A stretch of 64,000 nucleotides of DNA from a virus (IMGVR_UViG_2728369393_000001); one strand, 5' to 3'; numbered from the stretch's first letter, positions 7,565-29,406 are shown. Translations and numbers: made by a program. Notes: generated by a model not told the origin, from the sequence alone.

Positions 7565-7618
7565 AATCCCTACCTATACCAACGATGTATTTTTAACTAA
7601 ACAAAGAGGTTGTTTTTC

Positions 7619-8191: not shown

Positions 8192-8626
8192 TTCTAATGC
8201 CGCGTCGGTGTAATTTATCTTGATAGAATAGGTACATTTATCGCGCGGCACATCAATTCGATGTATCTAGCGCCTGCTGACCGCTAATGAAAACTGTTCT
8301 CGAAATGTTGTCCCTAGTCCGAGACTAGGGTATCACCTCTGGAAAGCATACGCAGAACCTTTTTTAACCCAGGGTGCCCAGTTTTTTTGCTGCTCGCCTT
8401 ATTCGCAAAAATTAGCTCACATCCTGCGCTTTCAAGTGCTTTTCACTGCATAGCTGTGTTTTGTTCATTTGTCTATATGCATACATAGCCTATTAACATA
8501 TTTTCTGCCCACTATCGTTATTTATTGCAAGCTACAGGTTTTAATTAACAAAACCAGTGTGTGTGGAAATCACAAAGTGCATACCGTTCTCAAATGTTGT
8601 TCAACTTACTGTTGTATAGGTAAAAA

Positions 8627-8890
8627 ATGACATTTTATGTACATATCGTGATGTTATCCCTTCTTGGTGGGGTGTATTCGTATTTGAGTGGGCTATGTGA
8701 AAACCGTTACGAGTCTTCATGCAAGAAATTGCTGGCCGAATGTATTTCCGCCGTACTTGCTGGCTTTATTGGCATGTATCTCGCGGAATATAAGGACATG
8801 AATGAAAGCCTTCAGAGCTGCATGGTTCTTATTTTCAGCGCCAATAGCAGGCTTATTATTGAAGGTTCCAAAAGTCGGTTGAATAGGTAA
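8627..8890 (+). CDS. small membrane protein upstream of the holin gene
   Basis: 87-aa hydrophobic ORF. Confidence 0.35.
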   Translation: MTFYVHIVMLSLLGGVYSYLSGLCENRYESSCKKLLAECISAVLAGFIGMYLAEYKDMNESLQSCMVLIFSANSRLIIEGSKSRLNR

Positions 8891-8964
8891 GTCTCTTATG
8901 CAACATAACCGGTTGAGAAGTTACTTTGCATACCATTACCTCCTGACAACGTAGGAGGGAACTT

Positions 8965-9294
8965 GTGCTTGACACACAGGAATTAGCTCCAGTTGCTATT
9001 GCGCTCCTGCTTTCAGTAATTGGTGGGATAGGCACGTTCCTGATGGATGTCCGAGACGGTCGCCAGTCTGGCAATTTGTTGGGATTGGTTACGGAGATCT
9101 TTGTTGCAGTGACAGCTGGCGCGGTGGCGTACCTATTGGGGCAACACGAGGGCTGGGAGTTATCAATTACGTACTTAATGGTAACGATAGCCAGCAATAA
9201 CGGTCATGAGGTGATTTCAGGGATGAAACGAGTGAATATCGATAGCATTCTGAATGTTCTTACAAGTTTGGTGAAAAAGGGAGGCGGGAAATGA
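8965..9294 (+). CDS. lydA: holin-like membrane protein (P1 LydA-like)
   Basis: 109 aa with hydrophobic segments; position between invertase and darA operon; length matches recalled LydA. Confidence 0.55.
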   Translation: MLDTQELAPVAIALLLSVIGGIGTFLMDVRDGRQSGNLLGLVTEIFVAVTAGAVAYLLGQHEGWELSITYLMVTIASNNGHEVISGMKRVNIDSILNVLTSLVKKGGGK

Positions 9295-9734
9295 TTGGCT
9301 GGGGTGTATGCGTTCTTGCGTTAGCCTTAGCCGATCGCTATTTGCTAAAACGCAAGGACATCACGCATTTAGAACTTGGTGATGTGGAAATTAAACCGGG
9401 TTTCATCCGGGTGCCGTTCAAATACCGGTCTAAATTCCCGTTTTTGCGCGGCGCAACGGTCAGATATTGGATCCGCGATGTTCAGAAGCCGACGACAGTG
9501 ATTGAAGGCGAACAACGTTGTTTGACGTCGGCTGAACAGGGCGAAAACAGTGAATGGTTGTACATACCCACTGAATATATGGGTAAAGGAGAGCGACTGT
9601 GGCATTTCAACGTCATGGTTACGCATGGCGACTCGTTCATTAACCCGTTGTATCGGATTTTCCCTGTTACTCAGCAAATCCGCAGAAGTTACGTAATAAA
9701 TCTCGCACAGGATGTGTCAGATGACGAAAAATAA
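9291..9734 (+). CDS. lydB: antiholin-like protein (P1 LydB-like)
   Basis: 147 aa; start overlaps lydA stop; synteny. Confidence 0.5.
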   Translation: MIGWGVCVLALALADRYLLKRKDITHLELGDVEIKPGFIRVPFKYRSKFPFLRGATVRYWIRDVQKPTTVIEGEQRCLTSAEQGENSEWLYIPTEYMGKGERLWHFNVMVTHGDSFINPLYRIFPVTQQIRRSYVINLAQDVSDDEK

Positions 9735-10323
9735 GTATGCAACGGTCGATTTTGACCAGGTTAATGAAAAGGGGCTGAAATCCCTTATCGCGGCGATCAA
9801 TAAAACCGGTGTTACGGTAATTGAGGTTGACTCCAGCAACCGCGCAACAACGAAAGATGGCGTTAAAGTTAAAACCGCAAAGCTGGTTCTTAACGACGGA
9901 CAAATTCTTGCCATACAGGTAAACGATACTGGCGATATATCGTCTGTGAGGCTGAATGGAAAAGCTATTCCTAACGCTCAGTCGCCGGATATCAAGACGC
10001 TTGGTACCGTCATGGGGCAAGCGGCCCGCAAAAACTCCGCAAAATTCCAGAAATCACTGATCGCCAAAGCGAAACGTGTTGCCAATCCGGTAGACAAGAA
10101 ACCGGCAGTAAAATCCAACTTTCAGCGCCTGCAAGAGGCAAAACAGCGGAATGCTCAGGTGGTTGCCGCTTATAAATCAGCGCAGAACTCGGTGTCTTTC
10201 AATCAACAGCAGATCACTGATTTGCGGGCGAAGCTGGATAAGGAGACAGGCCGACTCAATAACGAAAAGGCCCGAAATGGCGAACTCAAACGCCGTCTTA
10301 AGCAACTGAAAGCAGGAAATTAA
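9721..10323 (+). CDS. hdf: Hdf-like protein (shares a segment with DarA)
   Basis: ATG 3 codons into track ORF 9712..10323; KNSAKFQ segment shared with the downstream DarA; coiled-coil C-terminus. Confidence 0.55.
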   Translation: MTKNKYATVDFDQVNEKGLKSLIAAINKTGVTVIEVDSSNRATTKDGVKVKTAKLVLNDGQILAIQVNDTGDISSVRLNGKAIPNAQSPDIKTLGTVMGQAARKNSAKFQKSLIAKAKRVANPVDKKPAVKSNFQRLQEAKQRNAQVVAAYKSAQNSVSFNQQQITDLRAKLDKETGRLNNEKARNGELKRRLKQLKAGN

Positions 10324-10324
10324 C

Positions 10325-12244
10325 ATGGAACAGTTCAATATCAATAAAGGGGTGACGATCAAGCCTGGGCTTGACGTGCTTCCCCCGCCAGTGACTGATG
10401 ATGAATATCGCGCATTAATGGCCGGTGAGGACCGCTATCTGATGACGGAATCCAACACCCTGGAGGAAATCGAGGCTACGTTCTTCTATGACACGCCGAT
10501 CCACTGGTGTGCTACGGATTTACTGGAGGCGATTAGTTCTACTCGTTTGCAGTTACACCGGACCATGCAGGCATTTGTCCGGGCATTGAACCAGAAGCTG
10601 AATGGTACCGGAATCTCTGCGGGGAGTGATAAAACGGGGGATGTGGCCCAGAGCGGCGCGCGCGCGATCGGCGGTGCTGAAATTGGCCGGGCACGTAACG
10701 TTAACGGGCTGCCGGTCCTGCCAGCCATTATTCCGCTCAGTGATGGTCAGACTATCAGCATTCTGTTTCATAGCCCGACAGCGGAAAACCGGATCACCAA
10801 TAGCGATACGCTGGTTGCTTTCCAGTTCTTACTGAATAAAAAAGACGTTACTCACACCGTTGCTCCGATGAGTGGACGTGATATGACGCTGGCGCAGGTC
10901 ACCATGAAACTTGCCAACCTTGCAGAGAAAAACTCGGCAAAATTCCAGCGTGCGCAGAAGAAGAAAAAAGCCCTTGTTGATGAAATAACCCAACTACAGG
11001 CTGACAGTGACCAGAAAGAGGACGCCATGAGCGACCTCGCGGATCAGGTGGCAGCGGTAGAAGGGCAGAAGGCAGATCTGGAGCAGAAAATTAACGCTGT
11101 TGCATCGGAAGCGGATTCTCTTTATGAAGAGAATGAGCGTTTGCAGGGGGAGATTGATCGGCTCAATCGCACTGGTGGGCGCGATACCATTGCCCCTGCG
11201 GGGATGACTGGTGGGCACTCTCGCGCGCTGACGGATCGCCTTGCCAGTATCAAAAATCGTATGCATATGGACGGGGAAGCGACGCTCAGTAATGGTGCAT
11301 CAATGAAGCAATTCATTGGGGACGGCGAAGGGTATATCCAGTTAACCGATCCGGATGGCAGCGTATACATGATCAAGGCTAAATCCATACAGGGTGTGGA
11401 CATGGCAGATGCGATCGGCAAGCTGTTTAAAGCCTATAAAGCGGGTAATGTATCGGAATACCTGGTCCAACCAGAAGAACATAAACCGGAAAACGTCGAA
11501 CCTGAACCAGCGGAGGATACCGGTAGCTCTTCGCCTGAACCAGAAGTCTCTGTAGGTGCATATCGATATGCCCTGCAAATGCGTCCGGCGGCCCCTGGCG
11601 CAATACCTGAAGGTAACAAAGCAATTCTGCCGCGCCCTGATGAAGGTGACCCGTATTATGAATATGCACGCTACGGCATTGCTACTTACGATACCCCGCT
11701 TTCTGATCAGCAAATGAGTGAGTACGACCTGAAGTTATTGCCTCGCGAGGATTCTTTCGATTTCCTGGCGAAGACACTTACTAATGGTCCGTTTGGCAAA
11801 TATGCACAAAAAGCTCTGGAGCTGGCCACCAGCTCACCAGACGAGTTCCGCGTAATGCTGAAAACTCAGTTTCAAAAAACTTTCCCCAATATTGCGTTTC
11901 CTGGGGGCGCTGGCACCGAGAAAATGGTGCAGAGCATGATCAATGCATTGCAGGCCGAAGTCGGTGAGATTACTCAGCCAGAACCGGCCCCGGCACAGCC
12001 TGATGAAACGGTTAGCGAAGCAGATGCAGAGGCTAATAAAGCCATTGAATATCTCAATAACGTGATGGATATGCAAAGCACTGACATGGCGGAGATCCGT
12101 AACGCCCGGGGCAATGTCCGGGAAGCGATTGCAGCCCTTCAGGCTGCCGGACGTTTTGAGGAAAACGAAGAGCTGGTTAACGGCGCAGCTCGCCACCTGG
12201 CTGATCTGTTGGTAGCAATCCAGAAAGCGGGGGTAGCGGCATGA
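10325..12244 (+). CDS. darA: DarA-like capsid-packaged antirestriction protein
   Basis: 639 aa; position after lydAB-hdf; size and synteny consistent with P1 DarA. Confidence 0.7.
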   Translation: MEQFNINKGVTIKPGLDVLPPPVTDDEYRALMAGEDRYLMTESNTLEEIEATFFYDTPIHWCATDLLEAISSTRLQLHRTMQAFVRALNQKLNGTGISAGSDKTGDVAQSGARAIGGAEIGRARNVNGLPVLPAIIPLSDGQTISILFHSPTAENRITNSDTLVAFQFLLNKKDVTHTVAPMSGRDMTLAQVTMKLANLAEKNSAKFQRAQKKKKALVDEITQLQADSDQKEDAMSDLADQVAAVEGQKADLEQKINAVASEADSLYEENERLQGEIDRLNRTGGRDTIAPAGMTGGHSRALTDRLASIKNRMHMDGEATLSNGASMKQFIGDGEGYIQLTDPDGSVYMIKAKSIQGVDMADAIGKLFKAYKAGNVSEYLVQPEEHKPENVEPEPAEDTGSSSPEPEVSVGAYRYALQMRPAAPGAIPEGNKAILPRPDEGDPYYEYARYGIATYDTPLSDQQMSEYDLKLLPREDSFDFLAKTLTNGPFGKYAQKALELATSSPDEFRVMLKTQFQKTFPNIAFPGGAGTEKMVQSMINALQAEVGEITQPEPAPAQPDETVSEADAEANKAIEYLNNVMDMQSTDMAEIRNARGNVREAIAALQAAGRFEENEELVNGAARHLADLLVAIQKAGVAA

Positions 12245-12606
12245 CACTATCAGCTATTGAGTTAATGGATCTCAGCGATAAGTTGGATGCTCTGATGTCC
12301 AAAGCGGCTACCGCGAGTGGTATGGAGTTGCTGGATATCAGCGATGAAATTGACCAGATCATGCAACAGATGGGGTACGGCGCGTCCGGCGGTGGTAGTG
12401 GCGAGGAAAAACAACCTTCGGAACATGATGGTGTGCCAAAACTGGTTGCTGATTTCCTGGCTGATAAATTCGTCGATCAGAGCACCGATGCATTTATCGG
12501 TACCTTGCAGGATTTGAATCAATATGTTGGCACATACATCGACCTGGACCAGGTTAAACAGCACACGGCGGCATGGATAGCCGCCAACATTAAAGAGGCA
12601 GCATAA
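12241..12606 (+). CDS. ddrA: DdrA-like protein
   Basis: 121 aa, start overlaps darA stop (ATGA). Confidence 0.55.
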   Translation: MTLSAIELMDLSDKLDALMSKAATASGMELLDISDEIDQIMQQMGYGASGGGSGEEKQPSEHDGVPKLVADFLADKFVDQSTDAFIGTLQDLNQYVGTYIDLDQVKQHTAAWIAANIKEAA

Positions 12607-12618
12607 GGCGTAACAGGG

Positions 12619-15606
12619 ATGAGCTTAAGCGATCAGGTGGTAATGGCCACCAGCATAGAAACGCTGATCGAGCTGCTAAAGAACCTGCCCGATTATGGGC
12701 GGGTTTCGTATGTGGTGACAGCGAAGGGAGACGAGGTAAAAACAGCGTTTGATATCGTCGATGCCTCAGCTCTTTTGGTATCCAATACTCTGGATGGGAA
12801 AATTAATCCTGACTATCCCCAGGAACTTCAACCGCGCGACCGGACCCGCGCATCCAGCCTTCTTCAGGTTAACCAGATATCCAAAGATTTGCGGCCTGCT
12901 CAGCTTACTGATTCCGGTTTATCCAGCCATGGCGCGCCGATAATTGGTGAGGACAATGCCGTTGAGTCAGGTAATGGGAGGACCATGGGGATCATTAAAG
13001 CCTATCAGGACGGTAATGCGGATCGGTATCGGGAGTACCTGATTGAACATGCGACCGAATTCGGAATACGACCTGAAAAGGTTGAATCAATGACGGCTCC
13101 GGTACTGGTGCGCCGCCGGTTAACGAAGGTTGACCGTGTTCAGTTTGCCAAGGACTCAAATATTTCTGATCTCCAGGAAATGGCAGCCAGTGAAAAGGCT
13201 TTTGTTGATGCCGACAGCATAACTCCGGCGATGATGGCGCTGTTTAACCCATCAGAAAGCGGAGATCTGCTTAGCCGCAGTAATGACGCGTTTATTCGCG
13301 GATTCATGACGCAAGTTGGTGCCACACAGGCTGCTGGCCTTGTAACGGAAGATGGGCGACCAACACGGCAACTTGTTGACCGTATACAAAACGCGATCTT
13401 TGCCAAGGCATATAAGGATGCGCGCCTGGTAAGAATGGTTGCAGAAGAACCTGATCCGGATATGCGTAATGTTCTGACGGCGCTTAATGCGGCAGCCAAT
13501 GATTTTGTCCAGATGCAGGCTTTATCAGGAGAAGCGCACAAGCAGGCTGTGACAACTATTGTTGATGGTATTGAGACAGCGGATAGTCTCGATAAAAAGG
13601 CGCTGGCGGCATTGAAAGATGCGGTAGACCTGGTAAGGCAATCGAAGGAGTCAGGCCAACATATTACCGATGTTATTGCTCAGGGGGATATGTTCAGCGA
13701 AACAGCCCCGGAAGTGAAAGCTCTCGCGTTGTTCATCGTCGCGAATAACCGTAGCGCGAAGCGTATGGCCACCGCCTTTAAATTGATGGCTCAACGTATC
13801 AATGATGAGTTACAGCACCAGGGCCAGGCGCTGGGGGATATGTTTGGCGGTGGTGATGTGTCGTTACAGGATATCCTTCGCCAGGTGTCTCAGGAACTGG
13901 AAAACGAAGGCATGCAAGGGATATCCGGCGGTCTTTTCGAGTCCGTTTCCGGCGGTAGTTACAACGGTGTTGCTCCATATACCAGCTTGCTATTACATCG
14001 GGCATCCGGCATCAAAGACATTATTCATCTGATCAGGCTGCTTTCCCGTACAGATCCCCAGGATGAACAGCTTGTACAAGTGCTTGCGCATTTTGTTCGA
14101 ATGCCTGTTGCCGACGTGAATAAATGGTGCCGATTATTCGGTATCAGCAATTCGTTACTTCGCGGATTGTTAAATCACGCATCCTCCCTTGGGCGCGACG
14201 GCTTTGATGAGATAGCGCAGGCGATAAAAAACGGAGATATGCCACCAGCTATTGACTGGTTTTCCATTCGCCCAACCAGGGTGAAAGCATTCCTTAGCGC
14301 GGCGCATTCGGCATCACCATTGGCAGAAATGGTTCAGAGGTTGTCGCTCATATTCACAGACCATACCGCGTTGGGTGATCTGACTCTGGACGAGATGAAA
14401 GAAGCCTCCATTCAGTGGGCCGATCAACAAAATGAGGTTAACTCTGACTTCTTGCCAGCATTCAGGAAGGCCGTTAGTAAAGCGGATGATGCCCGTGGAA
14501 TTCTGAAGGCATTTAAGGCATTGCAAAGTCGTGTTAATAAACATGTCGGTGATATCGATGGGGTAACGGCGGAAGGCCGGGATATCCTTAAAGAGCACGG
14601 CATAACGCCAGAGTTTATTGATGAGATCAGGACGGATATGCAGCGTGAGGTCGTATCGTCCCTGCAAATCGTAGCCAGAGCGTTGGCGGATGCTAATCCG
14701 AAGAGTGCGGCCATTGTTAACCGGGTTATTGGTGATATTGAAGCATCGGAGGGCATGGGGGCGCTGAAACTCTTCCTTTCGCGAGCGTTTAATCCTAACG
14801 GCAATATTCTCCCTGGCATTATTGGTGAGGCTAAAAAGTATGTCAGTGAAGAAGAACTTGAGCAGCTTGACCAACTACTTAAGCGATTCTCATATAACCC
14901 GCAGACACGCTGGCAAATGAATCAGCGAAGTATGGGTTCGGTCCACGAGAAAGTGTTATCTGCCATGAACAGTGCGATCGCCAACTCATCCGTATCTGAA
15001 GAAAAAGCTCTTGAGTGGGCCGACTCTTTTATCACGGAAGAAGTGGAAGAAGCCCGCGCTGGACAGAATGGTGGGATAGACCTGCGCAAGGAACTTGCTG
15101 ATATTTATCGCCTGACCGGCGGTAAAATTTCGACCTTAACAAAGGTGGTTCACCACCAGGGAAGGGCATATGCAAATCTTAATGGTGTTGTTGCTGTCAA
15201 TTTGAACGATGAAAATGCAAGTGCACTGTGGCACGAGCTGGGTCATCATCTTGAGTACAGTAACCCTGGTTTGTTAGAGAAAGCCCGGTCATTCCTGAAG
15301 GCCAATGTTGAAGGGGATAAGCCATCTTTCGTTAATATCGGTGGGCGTGGCAAGCCTGAATGGTGCTTCAGATCTCGATTGAGTAATATTTATATGGCGA
15401 AGGTATACCCGCCAGCCTCAGTGAGTAATTCCGGGAAAATTCGGCAGAAATCACCGACTATTTCCAAAACGTCAGCAACGGAAGTATTCTCTATGGCTCT
15501 TCAGTTGTATCATGACAAAGAGGCCGCTGCCGCATCACTGATGAATGGTGACGGATTGCTGGAACTGTTATTAGGTGTGGCAAAGGAGCTAAATAATGCA
15601 GATTAA
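12619..15606 (+). CDS. ddrB: DdrB-like large protein of the darA operon
   Basis: 995 aa, ATG at 12619; synteny. Confidence 0.65.
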   Translation: MSLSDQVVMATSIETLIELLKNLPDYGRVSYVVTAKGDEVKTAFDIVDASALLVSNTLDGKINPDYPQELQPRDRTRASSLLQVNQISKDLRPAQLTDSGLSSHGAPIIGEDNAVESGNGRTMGIIKAYQDGNADRYREYLIEHATEFGIRPEKVESMTAPVLVRRRLTKVDRVQFAKDSNISDLQEMAASEKAFVDADSITPAMMALFNPSESGDLLSRSNDAFIRGFMTQVGATQAAGLVTEDGRPTRQLVDRIQNAIFAKAYKDARLVRMVAEEPDPDMRNVLTALNAAANDFVQMQALSGEAHKQAVTTIVDGIETADSLDKKALAALKDAVDLVRQSKESGQHITDVIAQGDMFSETAPEVKALALFIVANNRSAKRMATAFKLMAQRINDELQHQGQALGDMFGGGDVSLQDILRQVSQELENEGMQGISGGLFESVSGGSYNGVAPYTSLLLHRASGIKDIIHLIRLLSRTDPQDEQLVQVLAHFVRMPVADVNKWCRLFGISNSLLRGLLNHASSLGRDGFDEIAQAIKNGDMPPAIDWFSIRPTRVKAFLSAAHSASPLAEMVQRLSLIFTDHTALGDLTLDEMKEASIQWADQQNEVNSDFLPAFRKAVSKADDARGILKAFKALQSRVNKHVGDIDGVTAEGRDILKEHGITPEFIDEIRTDMQREVVSSLQIVARALADANPKSAAIVNRVIGDIEASEGMGALKLFLSRAFNPNGNILPGIIGEAKKYVSEEELEQLDQLLKRFSYNPQTRWQMNQRSMGSVHEKVLSAMNSAIANSSVSEEKALEWADSFITEEVEEARAGQNGGIDLRKELADIYRLTGGKISTLTKVVHHQGRAYANLNGVVAVNLNDENASALWHELGHHLEYSNPGLLEKARSFLKANVEGDKPSFVNIGGRGKPEWCFRSRLSNIYMAKVYPPASVSNSGKIRQKSPTISKTSATEVFSMALQLYHDKEAAAASLMNGDGLLELLLGVAKELNNAD

Positions 15607-15904
15607 AATCGCAGCGCCATTAGGCGGAGATGCCATTATCGAATTTGATGATAATGAAGAAGTTTCCGGGCGTTTAAGCATTATCTCCGGTGACATTACC
15701 GAGGACATGATCGCTGAAGCCATAGCTGGAGCAAATCCCAATAGCTATATGGGATTCGTTAACACCCTTGATGCTCCCGCAAGTGATGTTCTCCGAACGC
15801 TGCATCTTTACGCTGGCTGGTTTGTTGATTGGCCAGCAGTAGATGGTGGCGATGAGGACGACGACGATGATTTTGGTGATCATGTAGACCAGATCGTATA
15901 TTGA
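15596..15904 (+). CDS. small acidic protein, last gene of the darA operon
   Basis: 102 aa, ATG overlapping ddrB stop; poly-acidic C-terminus (DGGDEDDDDD); followed by terminator. Confidence 0.4.
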   Translation: MQIKIAAPLGGDAIIEFDDNEEVSGRLSIISGDITEDMIAEAIAGANPNSYMGFVNTLDAPASDVLRTLHLYAGWFVDWPAVDGGDEDDDDDFGDHVDQIVY

Positions 15905-15907
15905 AGA

Positions 15908-15934
15908 AATCCCGCCAATCGGCGGATTTTTTTT
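15908..15934 (+). terminator. rho-independent terminator
   Basis: TCCCGCC-AATC-GGCGGA stem-loop followed by T8. Confidence 0.7.
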
Positions 15935-16841
15935 AATCGCTTTCCACTTCTTCCGTGGTGTTTTCTTGCAGTTCTGTTAATGCAGCACGACATAGGTTCC
16001 GGGCATTGGCTATAGCCACACTTTTGACTTCATCCGTCATCGTGCAGGTAATGTACTGATCGAGTTCTTCAGCGCGGATGATGCTTTTGCCAATCAGAAA
16101 CTGTATTTGCCAGAGCAGATCGGCATCCATAATCAGAATTTCTGCCGGGCCTTCAGGGCCAGCCGGGAAGGAAACATAAGACTGTTTGCCCAGCCCGACA
16201 ACTCGACAACTTGCTTCAAGAATTGCGCGCTTGAGGTCTGACTTTATAACGGAAACAGGTTGATTTTCACCAGTGATTACGCCGTTGACATGGAAAGGCA
16301 TGTAGCTTGAAATACGCTCTACTTTCCACACGCCAGCAAGCGATCCTTCATGCAGCACAATGGGGGTAACCGCGAGTTTCATCTCACCATATAACTGCTG
16401 GCAGATAGCTGGATTGCTGAATACATCTAAAGGCTCACATTCAAACAGCGGCGCAATCTGCATGAGGTCCATCATGGTCATCCCTGGGGTACGAGCAGTA
16501 ATGAATTTGCGCATACCAGTATCCATTGCGCTCCAGATTGCTACACCATGCTTTTTGCTCACTTCTTCAGTAAAGCCAAGGTGGCACATGATGGTTTTTT
16601 CGATAGCCAGATCAGAGATAGAAACTTTTTCGCCAGGTACTCCATCATTATTGATGGTCACTTCGACACTCTGGCCATTACGTAGGCGGTATTGAATGGT
16701 TTTAGTTTTTTGTGCTGTCATAGTCTTTTCTCTGCTTAAAAACTGATGTATTGCGTCTTCAGGTGGGTTAGGAATGTTTTCCCACCAGCGAAAGCAATAT
16801 CTCGTGGTGTTCTGTTCGTTAAAAACGCGTGCCATTGCCAA
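15933..16841 (-). CDS. hypothetical protein
   Basis: 302-aa ORF (possible internal start at MTAQKT); no motif recognised. Confidence 0.4.
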   Translation of the reverse strand: MAMARVFNEQNTTRYCFRWWENIPNPPEDAIHQFLSREKTMTAQKTKTIQYRLRNGQSVEVTINNDGVPGEKVSISDLAIEKTIMCHLGFTEEVSKKHGVAIWSAMDTGMRKFITARTPGMTMMDLMQIAPLFECEPLDVFSNPAICQQLYGEMKLAVTPIVLHEGSLAGVWKVERISSYMPFHVNGVITGENQPVSVIKSDLKRAILEASCRVVGLGKQSYVSFPAGPEGPAEILIMDADLLWQIQFLIGKSIIRAEELDQYITCTMTDEVKSVAIANARNLCRAALTELQENTTEEVESD

Positions 16842-16918
16842 CTTTGGCGTTTTTTAGCGAGTTCGTGCTTTTGTTGGCGTCTGGACCACCGCTTTTCTTT
16901 CAGTCGTTTTTTACACAT

Positions 16919-17407
16919 TCAGAACGGAATATCGTCGTCAAAGTCCATTGGAGGTTCGTTATTGGCGTTGCTCTGAGGTTTACCGCCACCACTGTATTGC
17001 TGGTGGTTTTGAGGTTGGTTTGATTGCCCCCAGCCATTTGAGGACTGTGAATCGTCACGGCGAGCGCCGATCATTTGCATGGTGCCGCCCTGGCTGACGA
17101 TAATTTCCGTCGTGTAACGTTCTACACCGGCGTCATCTGTCCACTTACGGGTTTTAAGTTTCCCTTCGATGTAGACCTGAGAACCTTTTCGTAAATACTC
17201 ACTCGCAATTTCAGCAAGTTTTCCGAACAAAACGACTTTATGCCATTCTGTTTGCTCTTTCTGTTGGCCCGTTTGCTTGTCGCGCCATGATTCATTCGTT
17301 GCGATGCTGAGTCTTCCGACCGCTCCGCCATTTGGTATATACCTGATCTCCGGGTCTTGCCCCAGGGTACCAATCAGGATGACTTTGTTTACACCGCGTT
17401 GTGCCAC
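16919..17407 (-). CDS. ssb: single-stranded DNA-binding protein
   Basis: OB-fold N-terminus, Gly/Gln-rich linker, acidic tail ending DFDDDIPF. Confidence 0.93.
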
Positions 17408-17426
17408 TTATCTTACCTAATAAAAT

Positions 17427-17443
17427 AAATTAATTAGAGCAAT
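17427..17443 (-). promoter_or_regulatory. C1 repressor operator-like site upstream of ssb
   Basis: minus strand ATTGCTCTAATTAATTT, 16/17 to recalled consensus ATTGCTCTAATAAATTT. Confidence 0.55.
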
Positions 17444-17575
17444 AATGTATATCTTTGAAACGTAGCTAACAAGTGATTTGCATTATCCTGTGCCTTCTAA
17501 AGGGATCGAGTCAGTCGGTATTGGCTGTGAATGGGTGTTGTCCTGGAGCGTAAAAAATTCGCTTATGAGGTCTTT

Positions 17576-18133
17576 ATGAAGGGAAAAACAGCCGCAGGAG
17601 GCGGTGCAATTTGCGCTATCGCGGTGATGATTACCATCGTGATGGGTAATGGCAATGTGCGAACCAACCAGGCGGGGCTTGAGCTTATCGGAAACGCTGA
17701 AGGTTGCCGACGTGACCCATACATGTGCCCGGCGGGTGTATGGACTGACGGGATTGGTAATACACACGGGGTAACGCCAGGCGTGCGAAAAACCGACCAG
17801 CAAATCGCCGCTGATTGGGAAAAGAATATCCTGATCGCTGAACGCTGTATTAATCAGCACTTCCGGGGCAAAGACATGCCCGATAATGCCTTCAGTGCAA
17901 TGACAAGCGCGGCATTCAATATGGGATGCAATAGTTTACGGACCTACTACAGCAAAGCGCGAGGCATGCGAGTAGAAACGTCCATCCACAAGTGGGCGCA
18001 GAAAGGGGAATGGGTGAATATGTGTAACCATCTCCCTGATTTCGTGAACAGTAACGGCGTGCCACTGCGAGGCTTAAAGATTCGCCGTGAAAAAGAACGT
18101 CAGCTTTGCCTGACGGGACTGGTCAATGAATAA
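17576..18133 (+). CDS. lyz: SAR-type endolysin (lysozyme with N-terminal signal-arrest-release domain)
   Basis: ATG 15 codons into track ORF 17531..18133, GAGG RBS; MKGKTAAGGGAICAIAVMITIVMG hydrophobic Gly/Ala-rich N-terminus then lysozyme-like domain. Confidence 0.85.
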   Translation: MKGKTAAGGGAICAIAVMITIVMGNGNVRTNQAGLELIGNAEGCRRDPYMCPAGVWTDGIGNTHGVTPGVRKTDQQIAADWEKNILIAERCINQHFRGKDMPDNAFSAMTSAAFNMGCNSLRTYYSKARGMRVETSIHKWAQKGEWVNMCNHLPDFVNSNGVPLRGLKIRREKERQLCLTGLVNE

Positions 18134-18380
18134 ACTCCGGCAGCTCCGCCGACTTTCGACAATGAAGTTATCGCTGGCGGCGATAGTTTTCGACTCGATT
18201 TTCATGGCGGTATATGTGCTCAATGAGACGTGGCCACTGGAACCGCTATTATATGCCGGGCTTCGGCTGTGCCTGACATTTTTGAGCATGGCTGCAAGAT
18301 TGATGCAGCAGAAAGAAACCGCTTCAGATTGCCCACGTCGCGCGGTGCGAAAATATATGGCACGCAGACGAAGGCGATAA
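18126..18380 (+). CDS. small membrane protein with Arg-rich C-terminus downstream of lyz
   Basis: 84-aa ORF overlapping lyz stop. Confidence 0.3.
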   Translation: MNKLRQLRRLSTMKLSLAAIVFDSIFMAVYVLNETWPLEPLLYAGLRLCLTFLSMAARLMQQKETASDCPRRAVRKYMARRRRR

Positions 18381-18423
18381 TAGTTAACGAGAACCCGGCA
18401 GCCGCCGGGGTTATTTTTGATGG

Positions 18424-21154
<2,731 letters not shown>

Positions 21155-21220
21155 TTAATTAGAATAATTCGCATCGTGTTTGAACGGAATTTAACACTAG
21201 TCACTTGTTAAGGATTACCA

Positions 21221-24200
21221 ATGAACAAGCTATCTATGGGGGTGTTTCGCTGTTCAAGTGTCAGCGAAATATTGAAATACATTAGGGCAATAACATCTCA
21301 CCGAGCGCCGATTAGATACGGCGTGGAAAAGGTGGAAGGCAAAAGCTATGACCGACTACGCCGGGAGGCAAATCAGAAGGCGATAGATTTGCTTAATTCG
21401 CTGGTGGACGGCGCGACACTGACAGATGAACAGCGCCAGATCCTGGCTGGGTACACCGGCGAAGGCGGCATTGGCGGGTCCGTCTCCGAATATTACACAC
21501 CAAAGCCGATCGCTGAAGGTGTCTGGGAGATCATGAAGCTCTACGGCGCGGACGTAGGTAACACTCTGGAACCATCGGCGGGAACCGGCGTTTTTAATGA
21601 GACAAAACCGGTTGGTACGGTGATGACCGCGACTGAGATCAGCAGTGTTTCCGGTCGTATAAACCAGCTGTTGCACCCGGAAGACAGCGTACAGATTTCT
21701 CCGTTCGAACAACTGGCTGTAAGCACGCCTAACGATTCATTCGACCATGTTGTGGGTAACGTTCCGTTCGGTGGTCGTGATAACACACGCAACATCGATA
21801 AGCCTTACGCAGAAGAAACGGACATGGGTTCTTACTTCATGCTCCGCATGCTGGACAAGATAAAGCCAGGCGGATTCATGTGCGTGATTGTGCCGCCGTC
21901 CATTGTTTCAGGTTCAAACATGAAGCGGTTACGCCTGCGCCTATCACGGAAAGCTGAATTTCTTGGTGCCCACCGCTTGCCTACCGGTACTTTTGACGCT
22001 AACGGGACCAGTACGGTCGTAGATGTGGTGCTGATGCGCAAACATCCGGCAGAGATGGCTGAGAAAATCCCCCTGGTGGATGAAAGCACTCTCGAATCGG
22101 CAAATGTGCTTTGGTCAACGTTTATTTCTGGCAAGTGGTTTGAAAAGGATGGCCGCCGGTTTGTTCATGGCACCCAGGAAAAGGGCTTCCAGGGGCGTAT
22201 TGAGGTTCGTGCCGACGGTCAGATTGATAACCAGGCTCTTAAAGCGAAGCTGATTCATCGTTTCGAAAGCCGTATCGACTGGTCTTTGCTCGATATGGCT
22301 GAACCGTCACCGACCGCAGACGTTGTTGGTGAAGGGGAAATGCGCCTGATTAATGGCGTATGGCAAAAATATGCTGGTGGTCGCTGGATTGAAGCTGATG
22401 CAGGGAAGGAACTTAAGATCGATGCTGCCAGTTATGGCGCGGATAGCTGGGAGGCTCTTCAGCGTAACCTGACTACAACAGAAGGCCGTCTCGGCATGAC
22501 ATTTACCCAGATGGCAAATGTCCGCGATAAGTACACCACATCAATCAGCGACGATATGGTGCAGCTGGTGGACTGGATTAACAGCCAGCCTGAAAAATAC
22601 CGTGAACGCTTGTATCGCGGGGCGATGATTGGCCGGATGTTAATTGAATATCAGGACATGAAGGCCGCCGGGCATAGTGCTGAACAAATCGAACAGCAGC
22701 GCCTTTCTCTGGTATCCCGTTTGCAGGCAGAGATTGACCGTTTTGGTAACCCCGGTCGCGGTCCGATAGCGAAATTATCGGGGAGCGGTGCGCGCGCCTG
22801 GTTTGCTTTCCGTGGTGCAATTAAGCTGGATGGCACTATTTCTGACGAGCTGACAGGAAAACTGGTTACGCATGATTCCAGCGCCAGTTATGACTCCACC
22901 AGCTATCAGGACACCCTGCGTTATCTCTACAGTGATCTCACTCGCGATCCAATCCAGCTCGATGATTTCCGCCTTGCGTTTACCGGCGAACTGCCAGCCA
23001 GTGATGACGAGTTGCTTAATTTATTGGCCAGCACCCCTGGCATTGCGGTTTCACCGTATGGCGGGATTGTTCCGTTCGCCCGCGCCACCAGCGGCGACAT
23101 TAACGAGATAGTGGCTCCAAAACAGGAATTCCTCGCCACGCTCCCCGACGGTCCAGTAAAGAACAACGTCCTTAATCAGCTGGCAGCGATCGAAGAGAAG
23201 CGCATCAAGACGCCAGCAGAGAATATCCGCTTTAAGCTCAATAGCCGTTGGTTCGACCGTTCCGTCATTCTGGAGTTTTTGCAGGAAAACGGCTATCCGG
23301 ATCTGCGCTATGTGCAGTCAGTGCAGTTGGAAGGCGACGAAATGGTTTCTGACACCTATCACGGTGGTGATGGCCTGTTCGTCGGGCACCGATACGGTGT
23401 CGTCCAGCGTAAGGATAAAGAAACAGGCGAGATCCGCTACGAGTGGGACCGTAAATCAGGTGAAAACGCGACCGGGTTCCCGGCACAGCTGGAAAAGTAT
23501 CTCAATGGTGCGCGTATCGGTGGCAAAGATAGCGCGACGGCGAACGGCTACCGCGAGCAGATGGCACTGCTTGAGGACCAGTTCAATAAGTGGATCAAGA
23601 CGCACGATCGCTACGATGAGTTGGTTGCCAAATACAACGATGTGTTCAATAGCAATATCCCGTATGAACATTCTGGCGATCCGCTTGGGTTGAAGGGATT
23701 AAGCGGTAAGCGCCAGCCATTTGATTACCAGAATAGCGAGGTGCGCCGACTGTCCGAAGATGGGCGCGGCATCCTGGGCTTCGGCACCGGGCTGGGTAAA
23801 ACCACGACCGCGCTGGCGCTTGAGGCGTTCAACTATGAGAACGGTCGCTCTACCCGTACTGCGTATGTAGTGCCTAAATCAGTGCTGGAAAATTGGTATT
23901 ACGAAGCAAAAGAATTCCTGAGTGAAGAGGCATTCAGTAACTACTTGTTCGTCGGTCTTGATGTGCTGATGGATGGCGATCAGATTCGCCAGGTGCCGGT
24001 GCTCAATGAGAACGGTAAACCTGTTCTTGGTACTGATGGCACTCCAGTTATGCGCGATGCTCTTAAGCTGGCAGATGAAGCCACTATCACGGCGCGGATG
24101 AACGCGATCCCGCACTCAAACTACCGTGCAGTCGTGTTTACCAAAGAACAATACGCCCGCATTCCGCTACGTGATGACACCGTAGATGAGCATGCACAAG

Positions 24201-27200
24201 ACATGCTTTATGACTTCGTTGCCGCCGGGCGCGTAGCCAGCGCAATGGATTCCGACTCCCATCGTAAAGAGGCGGCGCGTCGCCGGGTATTGTCGGAGTA
24301 TTCAGATACCGGTACCGAAAAAGCAGAGAAATATCCGTACTTTGAGGATATGGGCTTCGATAGTGTGATCGCCGACGAAGGCCACAACTACCGCAATAGC
24401 TATAAAAATGGTCGCGAAGCGTCACAACTGGCCTATCTGCCCACCAGCGCGGTGGCGCAATCGGCGCGGGATATGGCAATCAAAAACGCGTACCTGATGA
24501 AAAAGAATGGCGGGCGCGGGCCGGTTCTCCTGACTGCAACGCCAGTCGTTAACACCCCGATCGATGCATACAACATGCTTTCTCATGTTCTGCCGAAGGA
24601 ATACTGGCAGAAGATGGGGATCTACGGTCCTGATGACTTCGTTAAATTCTTCGGCAAGACCAGGCTGGAAACGGTACAGAAAATCAGCGGTGAAGTTGAA
24701 GAAAAAATGGCGCTGGTGGGCTTTGAAAACCTTGATGCGCTGCGCGGTATATTCCATCGCTGGGTAACGCTTAAAACGGCGGAAGACGTTAAGGATACCG
24801 TGGAGATCCCGGAGCTGGACGAACACCAGCAGGATGCACCACTTACTGAAGAACAACTGGCGGCGTATGAAGAATTGCGTCAGCAGGCGGAAGCGGCGGC
24901 CAAAGCCAACAATGGCGTAACGACCTCGGTCAATGAAGACGGCGTGATTGAGCACGAGAAGGCCCGTCCGATCTTCTCAATAATCAGGGATATGGACCGC
25001 GTATGTACTGACATGGACCTGTACTATCGCCGGATCACCTATCGTTTCCTGCCGGAGTACGCCGATGCGGTGCAGCAGCTGGCGGACAGTTTGCCTAAAC
25101 AAGCCACCAGCGAAGACGACGACAGTGATGATTTAATCACGCAGCAATCGCAATACTCCCTGATAGATAAGGGCGAGTTTATTCAGTTGCAGGTTCCGGA
25201 AGCGTTCGAGCAGGAAGTGAATAAGCGCCTGGCCAGGTTTGGCATTGACGAACAGACCGTAACTCACCCCGTTACGCCCAAATACGCGAAGCTGATTGCC
25301 ACGCTGAAGGAGTTTTTCCCGGAAGGTAAGCAAATCATCTTCACCGATGAAAAAACGCAGCACCAGAAGCTCAAGCGCATTATCTGCAATGCTCTTAACC
25401 TTGAACCTTCAAAGGTGGGGATACTGAATGCTCAGACGGTTGCCGAGGCAGGTAAAACCGGTAAGAAACTGAAAGCGGTTAAACCGCCGAAAGAGTTACC
25501 GGATGAACCAACAGATGCACAGATAGCGAAATACAACGAGCAAATGGCTCTGTATGACGCCTATATCGCGCAGCAAAATGAAATGTCGTTGGGCGGTCTG
25601 GAAAAGATTGCAGCCGACTTCCAGGAGGGCCGGACTCCGATCATCATCTGCAACAAAAAGGCAGAGGTGGGTATCAACCTGCATCGAGGAACGACTGACA
25701 TCCATCATCTGACGTTGCCATGGACTCCAGCCAGTATTGCGCAACGAAACGGTCGCGGTGCCCGAGTTGGCTCCAACCGTGCAAGCGTTCGCGTTCACTA
25801 CTACTGCGGCAAGGGTTCTTTCGATGAATACCGACTGAAGACGCTGAAGCGTAAAGCAGGCTGGATCTCCGATATCCTCCGTTCAGATAAGTCAGAAATG
25901 GAGAACGCCGACGCCAACGATATGATCGAAATGCAGATGTATACCGCTAAGGATGATGGCGAACGTCTGGCAATGATGCAGGTTCAAATGGATAAGGCGA
26001 AAGCCGCGCAACGCGCTCGCCAGAAAGAACAGGCTACTATCGACCTTCAGAACTACATCAAGGCGCAGCACGCAGCTGGTGAGGATGTGGAGGTGCTTAC
26101 CGCTGAATTAGAGCGAAGCAAAGCGGAACTTGAAAAGACCACCGCCGAGGTAGCTAAATTCAAACAGGCGGCAATGGCCAAGGCAGCGGATAACGCAGAC
26201 TGGAAGGCACGCTGGGGGAGTGTCCATCACACAGACCGTATGTTGTTAGCACAGTATCGCGCGTCGTTGAAAAGCGCCATTCAGCGCAAGGCTAATATCT
26301 CTCAAGCCATCTCCCGCTATGAGAAATTATTGAACCGTACTCAGAAGGCCGCGACGGATATCAAACGCCTGCGCCCGCTGGTGGAGGATGCATTAAATAA
26401 AGGCATTCTGGATGTTGATCCTGACCTGGTTAACCATGCGAGTGAGTTCCTTGTTATCGGCGATCGCTCATGGCGTGTAGGCCAATACTACGATTGTGCC
26501 GGTGATATCGTTCGCATTAAGTCGCTGGACTTCGACAGCCAGCGCGCAGACGTGGAGATCATCTTCACCTTCAAAGGCACCAAATCTGGTAACTGGGATG
26601 TGAAGACGCTGGATAAACAGGTTGATGTAACTCCCGATGAAGATGCTGTTATGCAGAAAATCAGTGGTGGCGTCTCCATCGCCGGGATTAACGACATCGT
26701 TTCCTGTGACGATTTCTACCGTTTCCAGCAGCGCGGCATGATCAAAATCACTGACTCATACGGCGTTCAGACTACAGAGTCAGGCTATAGCATTGATTTT
26801 GTTGGTACCTATACGGACCCACTGAAGCATGCGGTTTACCCGGATCGCCGTGACGGCGCGCTGAAGTCGTCAATTGCAAAATGGGTGCTTGGTATGATGT
26901 CGGAAGGGAATAACCGCCAGATCCGTTCGGCAGAAGCATTCCTGGTTGAACTGTTTGGCTCCAATTATGGCGATGTAATCGCGTCATACGGAGATACGCT
27001 ATCCCCTGAAGCAATTCAGGAGAAAATAGCGGATGCGATCGCCAGAATGCCGGAGAAAACAAGCCAGGGGGCTACTCGTAACGGGGATTCTGAACTTGAA
27101 GTCACCAATGCCATTTTCGGTACCAATGAGTTCCGGGCGTCAGATTATGAGATCACCACAGCACAGTTTGGCACCATTGGCATTTACAGCAATAAAGACG

Positions 27201-27988
27201 AGATCAAGCAGGCAATGGACGCAGCAAGCGCGCGCATTGCAGCAGAACGGAAAGTCAATCTGAATCATGCAGTCGCCGCGCTGACTCAATCGTGGGTAAC
27301 AGCAATCAGGGAGGCCGCCACCACAGGAAAAATCACACCGGCAATTGCGGATGTCGTAAACGACGGCTCTAAATTTATGGATGCCTATAAAATGGATGCG
27401 GTGCAGTTGCCATCAGCCTATGGGCAACTCAGCTATCGCATGACCTACAACCTGGTATCAATGTTTACCGACCTTGCCATCCTTGGGCTGGTGGACCTTA
27501 ACGAGGTTACGCCGGAATTGCTCAGCATGCGCAAGAATCATGTGGAGATATTGCACAGAATTAACACGGTACTTGCCGGGCGCACCGATGAAGAGAAACA
27601 GGCAGACGCTGATCGGATAAACCTGGCCCTTGGCAACATCACGGAGGAAGAAATTGCTGCCAGAAACGAGAAACAAGAAGAGTTATCATCAATACAGGGT
27701 GATGCCACCAGCATAGCTCAGTCTCTTGGTCTGAATTATCGCGTATCCACCGCCGACCTGAAGATGATGTACGCACCAAAATTCGCCGCTGGCGAGGTAT
27801 TTGGGCTTCAGGAAGCCTCCGGCATGAAAGGGGTTCTTTTCCGTGCGAAAGACGCAATCAAGGCGAAATTCGGCGCTCGCTGGTTGCCAGCGAAGGCGAA
27901 GAACAGCGACTTCCCAGGTAACTGGTGGATTATCGAGACAAAACACAACGTGGCGGACGTTCTGGCCGTCATCCAACAATACGCATAA
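21221..27988 (+). CDS. darB: DarB antirestriction protein: N6-adenine methyltransferase domain fused to SF2 helicase
   Basis: 2255 aa; NVPFGG (NPPF-type MTase motif), GFGTGLGKTT Walker A, ADEGHN (DExH), QRNGRGARVG helicase motif VI. Confidence 0.85.
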   Translation: MNKLSMGVFRCSSVSEILKYIRAITSHRAPIRYGVEKVEGKSYDRLRREANQKAIDLLNSLVDGATLTDEQRQILAGYTGEGGIGGSVSEYYTPKPIAEGVWEIMKLYGADVGNTLEPSAGTGVFNETKPVGTVMTATEISSVSGRINQLLHPEDSVQISPFEQLAVSTPNDSFDHVVGNVPFGGRDNTRNIDKPYAEETDMGSYFMLRMLDKIKPGGFMCVIVPPSIVSGSNMKRLRLRLSRKAEFLGAHRLPTGTFDANGTSTVVDVVLMRKHPAEMAEKIPLVDESTLESANVLWSTFISGKWFEKDGRRFVHGTQEKGFQGRIEVRADGQIDNQALKAKLIHRFESRIDWSLLDMAEPSPTADVVGEGEMRLINGVWQKYAGGRWIEADAGKELKIDAASYGADSWEALQRNLTTTEGRLGMTFTQMANVRDKYTTSISDDMVQLVDWINSQPEKYRERLYRGAMIGRMLIEYQDMKAAGHSAEQIEQQRLSLVSRLQAEIDRFGNPGRGPIAKLSGSGARAWFAFRGAIKLDGTISDELTGKLVTHDSSASYDSTSYQDTLRYLYSDLTRDPIQLDDFRLAFTGELPASDDELLNLLASTPGIAVSPYGGIVPFARATSGDINEIVAPKQEFLATLPDGPVKNNVLNQLAAIEEKRIKTPAENIRFKLNSRWFDRSVILEFLQENGYPDLRYVQSVQLEGDEMVSDTYHGGDGLFVGHRYGVVQRKDKETGEIRYEWDRKSGENATGFPAQLEKYLNGARIGGKDSATANGYREQMALLEDQFNKWIKTHDRYDELVAKYNDVFNSNIPYEHSGDPLGLKGLSGKRQPFDYQNSEVRRLSEDGRGILGFGTGLGKTTTALALEAFNYENGRSTRTAYVVPKSVLENWYYEAKEFLSEEAFSNYLFVGLDVLMDGDQIRQVPVLNENGKPVLGTDGTPVMRDALKLADEATITARMNAIPHSNYRAVVFTKEQYARIPLRDDTVDEHAQDMLYDFVAAGRVASAMDSDSHRKEAARRRVLSEYSDTGTEKAEKYPYFEDMGFDSVIADEGHNYRNSYKNGREASQLAYLPTSAVAQSARDMAIKNAYLMKKNGGRGPVLLTATPVVNTPIDAYNMLSHVLPKEYWQKMGIYGPDDFVKFFGKTRLETVQKISGEVEEKMALVGFENLDALRGIFHRWVTLKTAEDVKDTVEIPELDEHQQDAPLTEEQLAAYEELRQQAEAAAKANNGVTTSVNEDGVIEHEKARPIFSIIRDMDRVCTDMDLYYRRITYRFLPEYADAVQQLADSLPKQATSEDDDSDDLITQQSQYSLIDKGEFIQLQVPEAFEQEVNKRLARFGIDEQTVTHPVTPKYAKLIATLKEFFPEGKQIIFTDEKTQHQKLKRIICNALNLEPSKVGILNAQTVAEAGKTGKKLKAVKPPKELPDEPTDAQIAKYNEQMALYDAYIAQQNEMSLGGLEKIAADFQEGRTPIIICNKKAEVGINLHRGTTDIHHLTLPWTPASIAQRNGRGARVGSNRASVRVHYYCGKGSFDEYRLKTLKRKAGWISDILRSDKSEMENADANDMIEMQMYTAKDDGERLAMMQVQMDKAKAAQRARQKEQATIDLQNYIKAQHAAGEDVEVLTAELERSKAELEKTTAEVAKFKQAAMAKAADNADWKARWGSVHHTDRMLLAQYRASLKSAIQRKANISQAISRYEKLLNRTQKAATDIKRLRPLVEDALNKGILDVDPDLVNHASEFLVIGDRSWRVGQYYDCAGDIVRIKSLDFDSQRADVEIIFTFKGTKSGNWDVKTLDKQVDVTPDEDAVMQKISGGVSIAGINDIVSCDDFYRFQQRGMIKITDSYGVQTTESGYSIDFVGTYTDPLKHAVYPDRRDGALKSSIAKWVLGMMSEGNNRQIRSAEAFLVELFGSNYGDVIASYGDTLSPEAIQEKIADAIARMPEKTSQGATRNGDSELEVTNAIFGTNEFRASDYEITTAQFGTIGIYSNKDEIKQAMDAASARIAAERKVNLNHAVAALTQSWVTAIREAATTGKITPAIADVVNDGSKFMDAYKMDAVQLPSAYGQLSYRMTYNLVSMFTDLAILGLVDLNEVTPELLSMRKNHVEILHRINTVLAGRTDEEKQADADRINLALGNITEEEIAARNEKQEELSSIQGDATSIAQSLGLNYRVSTADLKMMYAPKFAAGEVFGLQEASGMKGVLFRAKDAIKAKFGARWLPAKAKNSDFPGNWWIIETKHNVADVLAVIQQYA

Positions 27989-28021
27989 CAGGAGCGCCCG
28001 GTTCGCCGGGCGTCGCATAAT

Positions 28022-28462
28022 ATGGCCACACTATCTGATACAATAAAACCGAATAAAACATATCTTGAGGCGGTACTCCGTACAGCGTTGTTAGGAAAGA
28101 CAGAAGACGAATACGTTGATTTCTTCCTGTCAGGGCTACGCGGGCGATTACTGAAAAATCCCCGCCTGTACCGCAGCTATGGTCCATACTGGCCGGAAAT
28201 TAAAAAATTATTACTGGAGCGCGGTTATGGTAATTTCGGTCGTCTCGTTGACCGTGACGTTCGCAAAATTTACCGTTATGACCGCCCGGCGCTAACACTC
28301 ATAGCCGCGACGCTCTACAGCCAGGAGCGTTTTGATAATGGTCAGATATACTCAGCCTGGCATTTACTGCCAGTGCCTGAAGAAGTTGACGACCAGGACT
28401 ATGAGTTTGAGTCTTACGATTTGGAAGTTGAAGCCTTGGCACAGGCTGGAGAGAAAACTTGA
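28022..28462 (+). CDS. ulx: Ulx-like protein (gene upstream of lxc)
   Basis: 146 aa; synteny only. Confidence 0.45.
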   Translation: MATLSDTIKPNKTYLEAVLRTALLGKTEDEYVDFFLSGLRGRLLKNPRLYRSYGPYWPEIKKLLLERGYGNFGRLVDRDVRKIYRYDRPALTLIAATLYSQERFDNGQIYSAWHLLPVPEEVDDQDYEFESYDLEVEALAQAGEKT

Positions 28463-28707: not shown

Positions 28708-28789
28708 GTTTTGTTGGCCCGGTTTGCACCGGGCGTTTCACAAACAATCAACTGGTTTGTAGTTCCTGCGGCGAGATGAATTATTAATA

Positions 28790-29398: not shown

Positions 29399-29406
29399 AG
29401 TATGGT

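Follow-up and report, generated by a model that had tools for sequence, protein, structure and literature searches.

A 64,000-nucleotide stretch of viral DNA (IMGVR_UViG_2728369393_000001; the whole stretch is referred to below as the window) carries two separated groups of genes of the kind that includes darA and darB of phage P1, which raises the question whether these genes make up a complete antirestriction system and why such a system is kept in a sequence in which no restriction-modification (R-M) system is visible. The analysis assigns the locus, with a probability of roughly 0.93, to the Dar (defence against restriction) system of a plasmid prophage of the P1 family, in the same form as in phage P1 (Punavirus P1). 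Nothing in the sequence counts against this assignment. The Dar locus described here, which belongs to a P1-type plasmid prophage of Escherichia coli, is the well-described system of P1; it is already known and holds no new biology. Since it reproduces almost exactly a phage antirestriction system that is among the oldest described, it has little value as a discovery, and the uses of the analysis are a fixed annotation, the addition of ulx to the complete system and the removal of a false puzzle concerning R-M genes. The window itself shows which genes are present and in what order, that they are intact, which domains they encode, that the promoter is identical to that of P1 and that the genes are under purifying selection. 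Packaging order, co-ejection, action in cis and restriction specificity come from experiments on P1, and we infer their transfer to the window from the near-identity of the proteins.

Gene content and organisation of the two dar loci

All six dar genes lie on the plus strand of the window. The first locus contains hdf (9712-10323, 203 amino acids), darA (10325-12244, 639 amino acids), ddrA (12241-12606, 121 amino acids) and ddrB (12619-15606, 995 amino acids), and the second contains darB (21221-27988, 2255 amino acids), the first five genes being taken from the list of open reading frames (ORFs), followed by ulx (28022-28462), which encodes the sixth Dar component. A sequence-only reading of the same DNA had placed hdf-darA-ddrA-ddrB at 9721..15606 and a darB of 2255 residues at 21221..27988, and intact ORFs are indeed found at these coordinates. 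The same reading had called the system complete without listing ulx. Since the published system has six components (PMC12810830) and ulx is found after darB, the Dar system is complete, and the earlier term holds although the earlier gene list fell one short. The true extent of the system reaches from the late promoter LPdar at 8918 to the end of ulx at 28462. Piya et al. 2017 is reportedly the primary paper on the six-component system.

The hdf start at 9721 is an in-frame ATG located three codons downstream of the start at 9712 given by the P1 annotation. The 203-residue form beginning at 9712 is that of the Lobocka annotation of P1 and of PDB entry 9ukm_H, whereas the 200-residue form beginning at 9721 is found in the RefSeq/PGAP annotation of the matching plasmid described below. 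The start at 9721 was therefore not regarded as a mistake.

Protein comparison with the P1 reference (AF234173 / NC_005856) revealed identities of 98.5% for Hdf (200/203 residues), 99.4% for DarA (635/639), 97.5% for DdrA (118/121), 98.7% for DdrB (982/995), 98.8% for DarB (2228/2255) and 98.6% for Ulx (144/146), in each case over the full length. The alignments of Hdf, DarA, DdrA, DdrB and DarB, and likewise that of Ulx, contain neither gaps nor internal stops. In the first five the differences amount to 3-27 substitutions per protein, none of which falls in a known motif or in a modelled capsid-binding part. A lack of similarity to the P1 Dar proteins had been named as an outcome that would speak against the sequence-only reading; instead, 97.5-99.4% identity and an identical gene order were found. 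At the DNA level, a megablast search of phage records with both loci aligned the whole query (100%) to reference P1 with an identity of 98.0%; about 19 further records of P1-like phages, among them P7, RCS47, SJ46 and JL22, matched at 97.7-99.1%. The features underlying these matches are named Hdf, DarA, DdrA, DdrB and DarB.

The window runs in the reverse orientation of the P1 map and is collinear with it in two blocks, 8323-15902 and 15933-27915. This collinearity with annotated P1 confirms that the division into two loci, already noted in the sequence-only reading, is P1's own layout: the late operon lydA-lydB-hdf-darA-ddrA-ddrB is followed at a distance by a separate darB-ulx-lxc unit, which diverges from prt-pro. 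The genes between the loci are the same as in P1 (hxr, isaA, ssb, lyz, lydD/E, pro and prt), and the sole rearrangement in this interval is the absence of P1's isaB and IS1 (1.7 kb), which shortens the distance from one locus to the other by that amount compared with P1. At the corresponding place, window 15903-15932, about 30 bases comprising a hairpin and a subsequent T run replace isaB and IS1.

An even closer relative is the circular plasmid pCFSAN004176P_03 of Escherichia coli CFSAN004176 (NZ_CP012491.1, 95,721 bp), to which window 9000-33900 aligns in one piece with an identity of 100.0% (rounded). Only two differences were found, each a deletion of one nucleotide in a G/C homopolymer; the first lies at about 15925, behind hxr, and the second at about 18398, behind lydD/E. 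Neither falls within a gene. Each is located in the stem of a GC-rich hairpin that is followed by a T run, and the two probably reflect different sequencing or assembly versions. Window positions of about 9721-28462 correspond to 75264-94007 of the RefSeq record, in which Hdf, DarA, DdrA, DdrB and Ulx are labelled 'hypothetical protein' and DarB is labelled 'N-6 DNA methylase'. With five of the six Dar proteins entered as hypothetical, the public annotation of a well-characterised system is uninformative.

The surroundings of the locus belong to the P1 backbone as well, with cre/lox, c1, ref, mat, lxc, ssb, lyz, pro, prt, cin and the tail-fibre region. Pfam detects Cre (343 amino acids, Phage_integrase), Ref (RecA_dep_nuc) and SSB, and in the RefSeq record of the matching plasmid C1, Lpa, Phd/Doc, RepA and ParA/ParB are annotated, with repA and parAB located on the rest of the plasmid. 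In PLSDB, 822 records match; 354 plasmids cover at least 80% of window 9000-33900, and full-length darB, counted from 80% of the gene upwards, occurs in at least 440.

Intactness and selection

Compared with P1, 12 nucleotide differences are found in hdf, 23 in darA, 13 in ddrA, 68 in ddrB and 132 in darB, and about 80% of them are synonymous. The ratio of nonsynonymous to synonymous substitution rates (dN/dS; Nei-Gojobori) is 0.06-0.10 in these five genes, and thus the five large dar genes are under purifying selection. An interpretation as pseudogenes of a decaying prophage was rejected on the grounds of these ratios and of the absence of stops and frameshifts. The flanking genes prt, pro, lyz, ssb, cre and c1 are also full length.

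Transcription signals of the dar genes

The late promoter LPdar, consisting of a -22 box and a -10 box, is situated at 8918-8936 on the plus strand and would drive lydA-lydB-hdf-darA-ddrA-ddrB. The 61 bases around it (window 8910-8970) agree base for base with P1, and, judged by this sequence, LPdar is the predicted Lpa-dependent late promoter of the dar operon. The late promoter activator required by promoters of the LPdar type is also encoded in the window: the ORF at 37422-37874 on the minus strand is lpa according to RefSeq, where it is annotated as 'late promoter-activating protein' (positions 65852-66304 of the plasmid record).

The second locus possesses a promoter of its own. PdarB, a predicted sigma-70 promoter at 21135-21165 on the plus strand, has the boxes annotated in P1 and shares the divergent intergenic region between prt and darB with LPpro on the opposite strand. 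Within window 21129-21224 a single base differs from P1 (21171), which lies outside the PdarB boxes.

A GC-rich hairpin followed by a T run (AAATCCCGCCAATCGGCGGATTTTTTTT, 15907-15934) is located directly after hxr (15596-15904). This hairpin is likely the terminator that ends the dar/hxr transcription unit, a function suggested by its form and position. A second terminator-like element of GC-rich hairpin and T run is found at about 18398, after lydD/E.

Domain architecture of DarB

DarB starts with an N-terminal capsid-targeting sequence, which is followed by a gamma-class N6-adenine methyltransferase domain (residues ~90-295) and by an SF2 helicase of the SNF2 type (~830-1520). A domain search with Pfam, in which matches were counted above the curated gathering cut-offs, returned both folds, the lack of which would have spoken against the sequence-only reading, namely N6_Mtase/Eco57I at ~145-291, SNF2-rel_dom/ResIII at ~833-911 and Helicase_C at 1455-1517; in the C-terminal ~730 residues no Pfam domain was detected. 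The sequence-only reading had described DarB as a combination of the N6-adenine methyltransferase motif NVPFGG with SF2 helicase motifs, and this description is borne out at the level of individual residues. NVPFGG occupies residues 180-185 and is preceded by the S-adenosylmethionine-binding motif LEPSAGTGVF, so that methyltransferase motifs I and IV are both intact. The helicase motifs are of the SNF2 type and comprise motif I (GTGLGKTT, ~855-862), motif II (DEGH, 1052), motif III (TATP, 1105) and motif VI (QRNGRGAR, 1508). Methyltransferase and helicase activities of DarB are accordingly predicted from domains and motifs.

DarB, like Ulx and Lxc, was compared with P1 as a protein, and its substitutions were listed over residues 1-2231. 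None of the 27 substitutions found there affects a methyltransferase or helicase motif. Residues 1-31 are unchanged and include the capsid-targeting signal, which in P1 consists of the N-terminal 30 residues (PMC9024508).

The closest solved relatives of the methyltransferase core (~86-267) are HsdM subunits of type I systems, including EcoKI M, with weak E-values of 1.6e-4 to 6.9e-4. EcoKI M belongs to the very system against which DarB protects. The match may reflect no more than the shared gamma-class fold. The best methyltransferase match of DarB in PADLOC is likewise a type I methyltransferase.

Hdf, DarA, DdrA, DdrB and Ulx

Hdf and DarA match the in-capsid P1 structures 9ukm/9vz0 along their full length. 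Hdf is recognised by Pfam DarA_N (1.5e-21), by PHROG 1620 ('Hdf-like antirestriction') and by PDB 9ukm_H (E 9.5e-122), and DarA by Pfam DarA_N (3.8e-42) together with DarA_C (5.7e-17) and, over the full length, by PDB 9ukm_I. In P1, Hdf and DarA form pairs on the inner face of the capsid, and packaging of the remaining Dar proteins depends on Hdf (PMC12810830, PMC9024508). DarA is an internal head protein that is cleaved by Pro (PMC12810830), takes part in determining head size and serves as a platform for the incorporation of Dar proteins. The three substitutions of Hdf (T27A, S61N, K80R) fall in its flexible N-terminal domain and spare the modelled helix domain that binds the capsid (135-203); those of DarA (M10V, S395P, N503S, T607A) are located in the cleaved N-terminal piece or in the unmodelled C-terminal domain. 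The capsid-binding parts modelled by cryo-electron microscopy, DarA 70-382 and Hdf 135-203, are thus 100% conserved.

DdrA is assigned to PHROG 1855 ('DdrA-like anti-restriction protein', 6.9e-57); its P1 counterpart is a small head protein acting against EcoA restriction (PMC9024508 Table 1). DdrB, which in P1 helps the addition of DarB to the capsid (PMC9024508), shows Pfam ddrB-ParB (1.3e-39) in its N-terminal part and a HELGH motif at residue 872 in its C-terminal part, the latter fitting the zincin peptidase domain proposed by Iyer et al. (PMC5512222). Ulx belongs to PHROG 1629 ('Ulx-like anti-restriction', 4.5e-66) and 'aids DarB localization' in P1 (PMC9024508 Table 1).

An antisense ORF within ddrB, iddB of P1, maps to about 13173-13571 of the window, where an ORF in the same frame is found at 13140-13541 on the minus strand (133 amino acids). 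Its ends are shifted relative to P1, which suggests that the ORF is not conserved as a gene.

Proposed mode of action and alternative explanations

The roles of the Dar components and the mechanism of protection have been described for P1 (PMC12810830, PMC9024508, PMC12707154), and the statement of the sequence-only reading that the P1 proteins are packaged in the capsid and shield injected DNA from type I restriction agrees with all three reports. On its inside, the P1 capsid bears fifty-five pairs of DarA and Hdf, which are placed at the junctions between pentons and hexons and contact the DNA; Hdf and DarA enter early, Pro cleaves the N-terminus of DarA, the other Dar proteins follow, and all are ejected together with the DNA (PMC12810830). 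Protection acts strictly in cis, on the DNA of the same head, and extends to several type I systems (EcoK, EcoB, EcoA, StySA) and to BREX (PMC12707154).

Transferred to the window, these results would give the following course of events. During lytic growth Lpa would switch on LPdar, resulting in transcription of lydA-lydB-hdf-darA-ddrA-ddrB, and darB-ulx would be transcribed from their own promoter, divergently from prt/pro. Hdf and DarA would be the first to enter the procapsid, forming pairs at the penton-hexon junctions inside the capsid, touching DNA and helping to set head size, and the N-terminus of DarA would be removed by the Pro protease. DdrA, DdrB, DarB and Ulx would be incorporated next, DarB by means of its N-terminal 30 residues and aided by DdrB and Ulx. 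On infection, the Dar proteins would be ejected with the DNA and act in cis only. DarB together with DdrB and Ulx would be required against type I enzymes of the EcoK/EcoB type, and DarA, Hdf and DdrA against those of the EcoA/StySA type. The last step is hypothetical: DarB could act on the entering DNA. Its SNF2-type motor and its methyltransferase-like domain might occupy this DNA, or remodel it, in such a way that type I complexes are unable to translocate and cleave; alternatively, DarB might simply coat it. Such an action of DarB on the entering DNA is regarded as the most likely blocking step.

Part of this evidence could also be read differently. The dar genes might be kept mainly for capsid morphogenesis, that is, for the contribution of Hdf and DarA to head size and capsid stability and regardless of host restriction systems, which would also explain their retention. 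P1 lacking DarA or Hdf shows disturbed head morphogenesis and excludes the other Dar proteins (PMC12810830, PMC9024508 Table 1), capsids without the 55 reinforcing pairs at the penton-hexon junctions rupture more often (PMC12810830), and the parts of both proteins that bind the capsid are fully conserved in the window. However, this explanation accounts for hdf and darA only, whereas ddrA, ddrB, darB and ulx (~10.6 kb) have no known morphogenetic role and yet show an equally low dN/dS of 0.07-0.08. As the main reason for retention, morphogenesis is possible but rather doubtful; since morphogenesis and antirestriction are not mutually exclusive, it complements the antirestriction function and does not replace it. 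Far less plausible is a cryptic or defective plasmid prophage whose Dar genes are intact by recent descent without ever being used in virions. Genomes of E. coli contain many P1-like plasmids, as the PLSDB matches illustrate, and some are degraded, two of the matches containing only a partial darB. Yet all Dar ORFs and the flanking prt, pro, lyz, ssb, cre and c1 are full length, the late promoter is that of P1, and neither the large share of synonymous differences nor the low dN/dS would be expected for decay, so that this explanation is highly improbable.

With regard to DarB itself, the protein could be neither a shield nor a remodeller but a stand-alone enzyme, an orphan N6-adenine methyltransferase by which type I sites on the incoming DNA are methylated. 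Its intact gamma-class motifs I and IV, the HsdM subunits including EcoKI M as nearest solved relatives and the type I methyltransferase as best PADLOC match fit such an enzyme. Type I specificity, however, requires an HsdS subunit, which DarB does not have, and a single DarB enzyme would need to serve both EcoK and EcoB sites, which differ; moreover, protection works only in cis and sets in as soon as the DNA enters (PMC12707154), and DarB resembles HsdM only weakly and in no part but the catalytic core. A role as orphan methyltransferase is consequently quite improbable. Also unlikely is the least conventional reading, in which DarB is no passive shield but works as an enzyme and, through its HsdM-like methyltransferase core and its SNF2-type motor, engages type I complexes or their target DNA while the DNA enters; it could, for instance, displace translocating EcoKI/EcoBI or make them stall. 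Because the Dar proteins are 97.5-99.4% identical to those of P1, the window provides no new leverage on this idea.

Absence of a restriction-modification system

In the sequence-only reading, retention of the dar genes had appeared noteworthy in view of the lack of a visible cognate R-M system. The observation itself stands, as no R-M system is found in the window; the underlying concept is mistaken, since Dar needs no phage-borne partner. Its targets are the type I enzymes (and BREX) of the host that is being entered, and hence there is no puzzle of retention. For the matching plasmid (95.7 kb), the RefSeq annotation includes no restriction endonuclease and only a Dam-family methyltransferase, which lies outside the window.

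In P1, the slot between lxc and mat/ref/cre carries res and mod of EcoP1I, a type III system that is functionally unrelated to Dar. Between lxc and mat of the window, res/mod is absent. The slot (28708-29600) contains a single ORF encoding a GNAT acetyltransferase of 202 amino acids (28790-29398, minus strand) in a stretch of 38% GC, compared with 48% for the window. The same lxc-GNAT-mat arrangement occurs in at least 18 PLSDB plasmids, and other P1-like plasmids harbour a gene for a RelA/SpoT-domain protein at this place. Since different relatives carry different genes, the lxc-mat slot represents a variable cargo site. In PLSDB, 108 plasmids have a P1-type res gene, 48 of them with an identity of at least 99%, versus the 440 with at least 80% of darB, so that P1-like plasmids usually have Dar without res/mod. 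The share of darB plasmids with res would be no more than about one quarter, an upper bound inferred from two separate counts. For these reasons, the type III nature of EcoP1I and the plasmid counts, no meaning was attached to the absence of an R-M system. In sum, the Dar set is conserved under purifying selection over hundreds of P1-like plasmids, next to a res/mod slot that varies.

Whether the GNAT ORF is a known defence gene was also considered and answered in the negative: there was no PADLOC match, PHROG 10454 has no assigned function, and in Pfam only the generic GNAT family was hit. That this low-GC gene represents undescribed defence or counter-defence cargo is a weaker side possibility, on which the near-identity of the Dar proteins to those of P1 gives no new leverage either.

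Comparison with other antirestriction systems

The system agrees with that of P1 in having the same six genes, arranged alike in two loci with unchanged order and orientation, and in the late promoter and the protein lengths. It differs in the substitutions described above, in the replacement of res/mod by the GNAT gene downstream of lxc and in a spacer without isaB and IS1. In other P1-like phage-plasmids (P7, RCS47, SJ46, JL22, vB_EcoM-673R5, and plasmids of E. coli and Salmonella that number in the hundreds and include pCFSAN004176P_03) the Dar loci are essentially alike, and differences concern the cargo in the res/mod slot, such as the RelA/SpoT-domain protein.

Internal protein I* (IPI*) of phage T4 is a small single protein inhibiting a type IV enzyme, whereas Dar is a set of six proteins, unrelated to IPI*, that acts in cis against type I enzymes. 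Both have in common N-terminal targeting to the prohead and injection with the DNA as a measure against host restriction (PMC9024508). Among polyvalent proteins and ArdC-type DNA-binding antirestriction proteins, DarB (methyltransferase and SNF2 helicase) and DdrB (ParB-like and zincin) are founding examples of multidomain proteins that are introduced together with invading DNA (Iyer et al. 2017, PMC5512222). Polyvalent proteins of conjugative elements differ in using a type IV secretion route and in possessing other domain sets. The membership of DarB and DdrB in the polyvalent class, which follows from their predicted domain architecture, is not new. Ocr of phage T7 and ArdA are small DNA-mimic proteins acting in trans; they address the same target class as Dar, type I R-M systems, without any sequence relationship to it. 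Both bind the restriction enzyme (PMC5512222).

Neighbouring genes and tail-fibre region

The leading genes of the dar late operon are not Dar components. According to the P1 annotation, lydA (8965-9294, plus strand; 109/109 residues identical to P1) encodes the holin and lydB (9291-9734, plus strand; 145/147) the antiholin. Between the dar loci, the minus strand encodes two trans-acting partners, pro and prt (18424-21145), which are collinear with P1 at 97.8% DNA identity. The ORF of the head-processing protease Pro spans 18424-19473, with the RefSeq start ('head processing protein') further inside, and that of the portal protein Prt spans 19436-21145 (RefSeq 'phage portal protein'). Downstream of ulx follows lxc, which ends at 28707 and whose product is identical to P1 Lxc in all 82 residues (82/82).

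Near the start of the window, the tail-fibre gene (428-3133) contains four near-perfect (99%) tandem repeats of 300 nucleotides at 1180-2470, with an internal sub-period of 132/168 nucleotides. They correspond, in expanded form, to repeats that the P1 annotation gives for gene S. Within window 2623-7620, a segment of about 230 nucleotides near the 3' end of the same gene has eight inverted copies downstream of it, with 80-95% complementarity and a spacing of about 440-510 nucleotides. Each of these copies heads a short ORF for a 'phage tail protein', and the array adjoins an ORF for a Cin-like recombinase (7610-8191, plus strand). It resembles a multiple-inversion (shufflon-like) array of tail-fibre cassettes of the p15B type, and not the simple C segment of P1.

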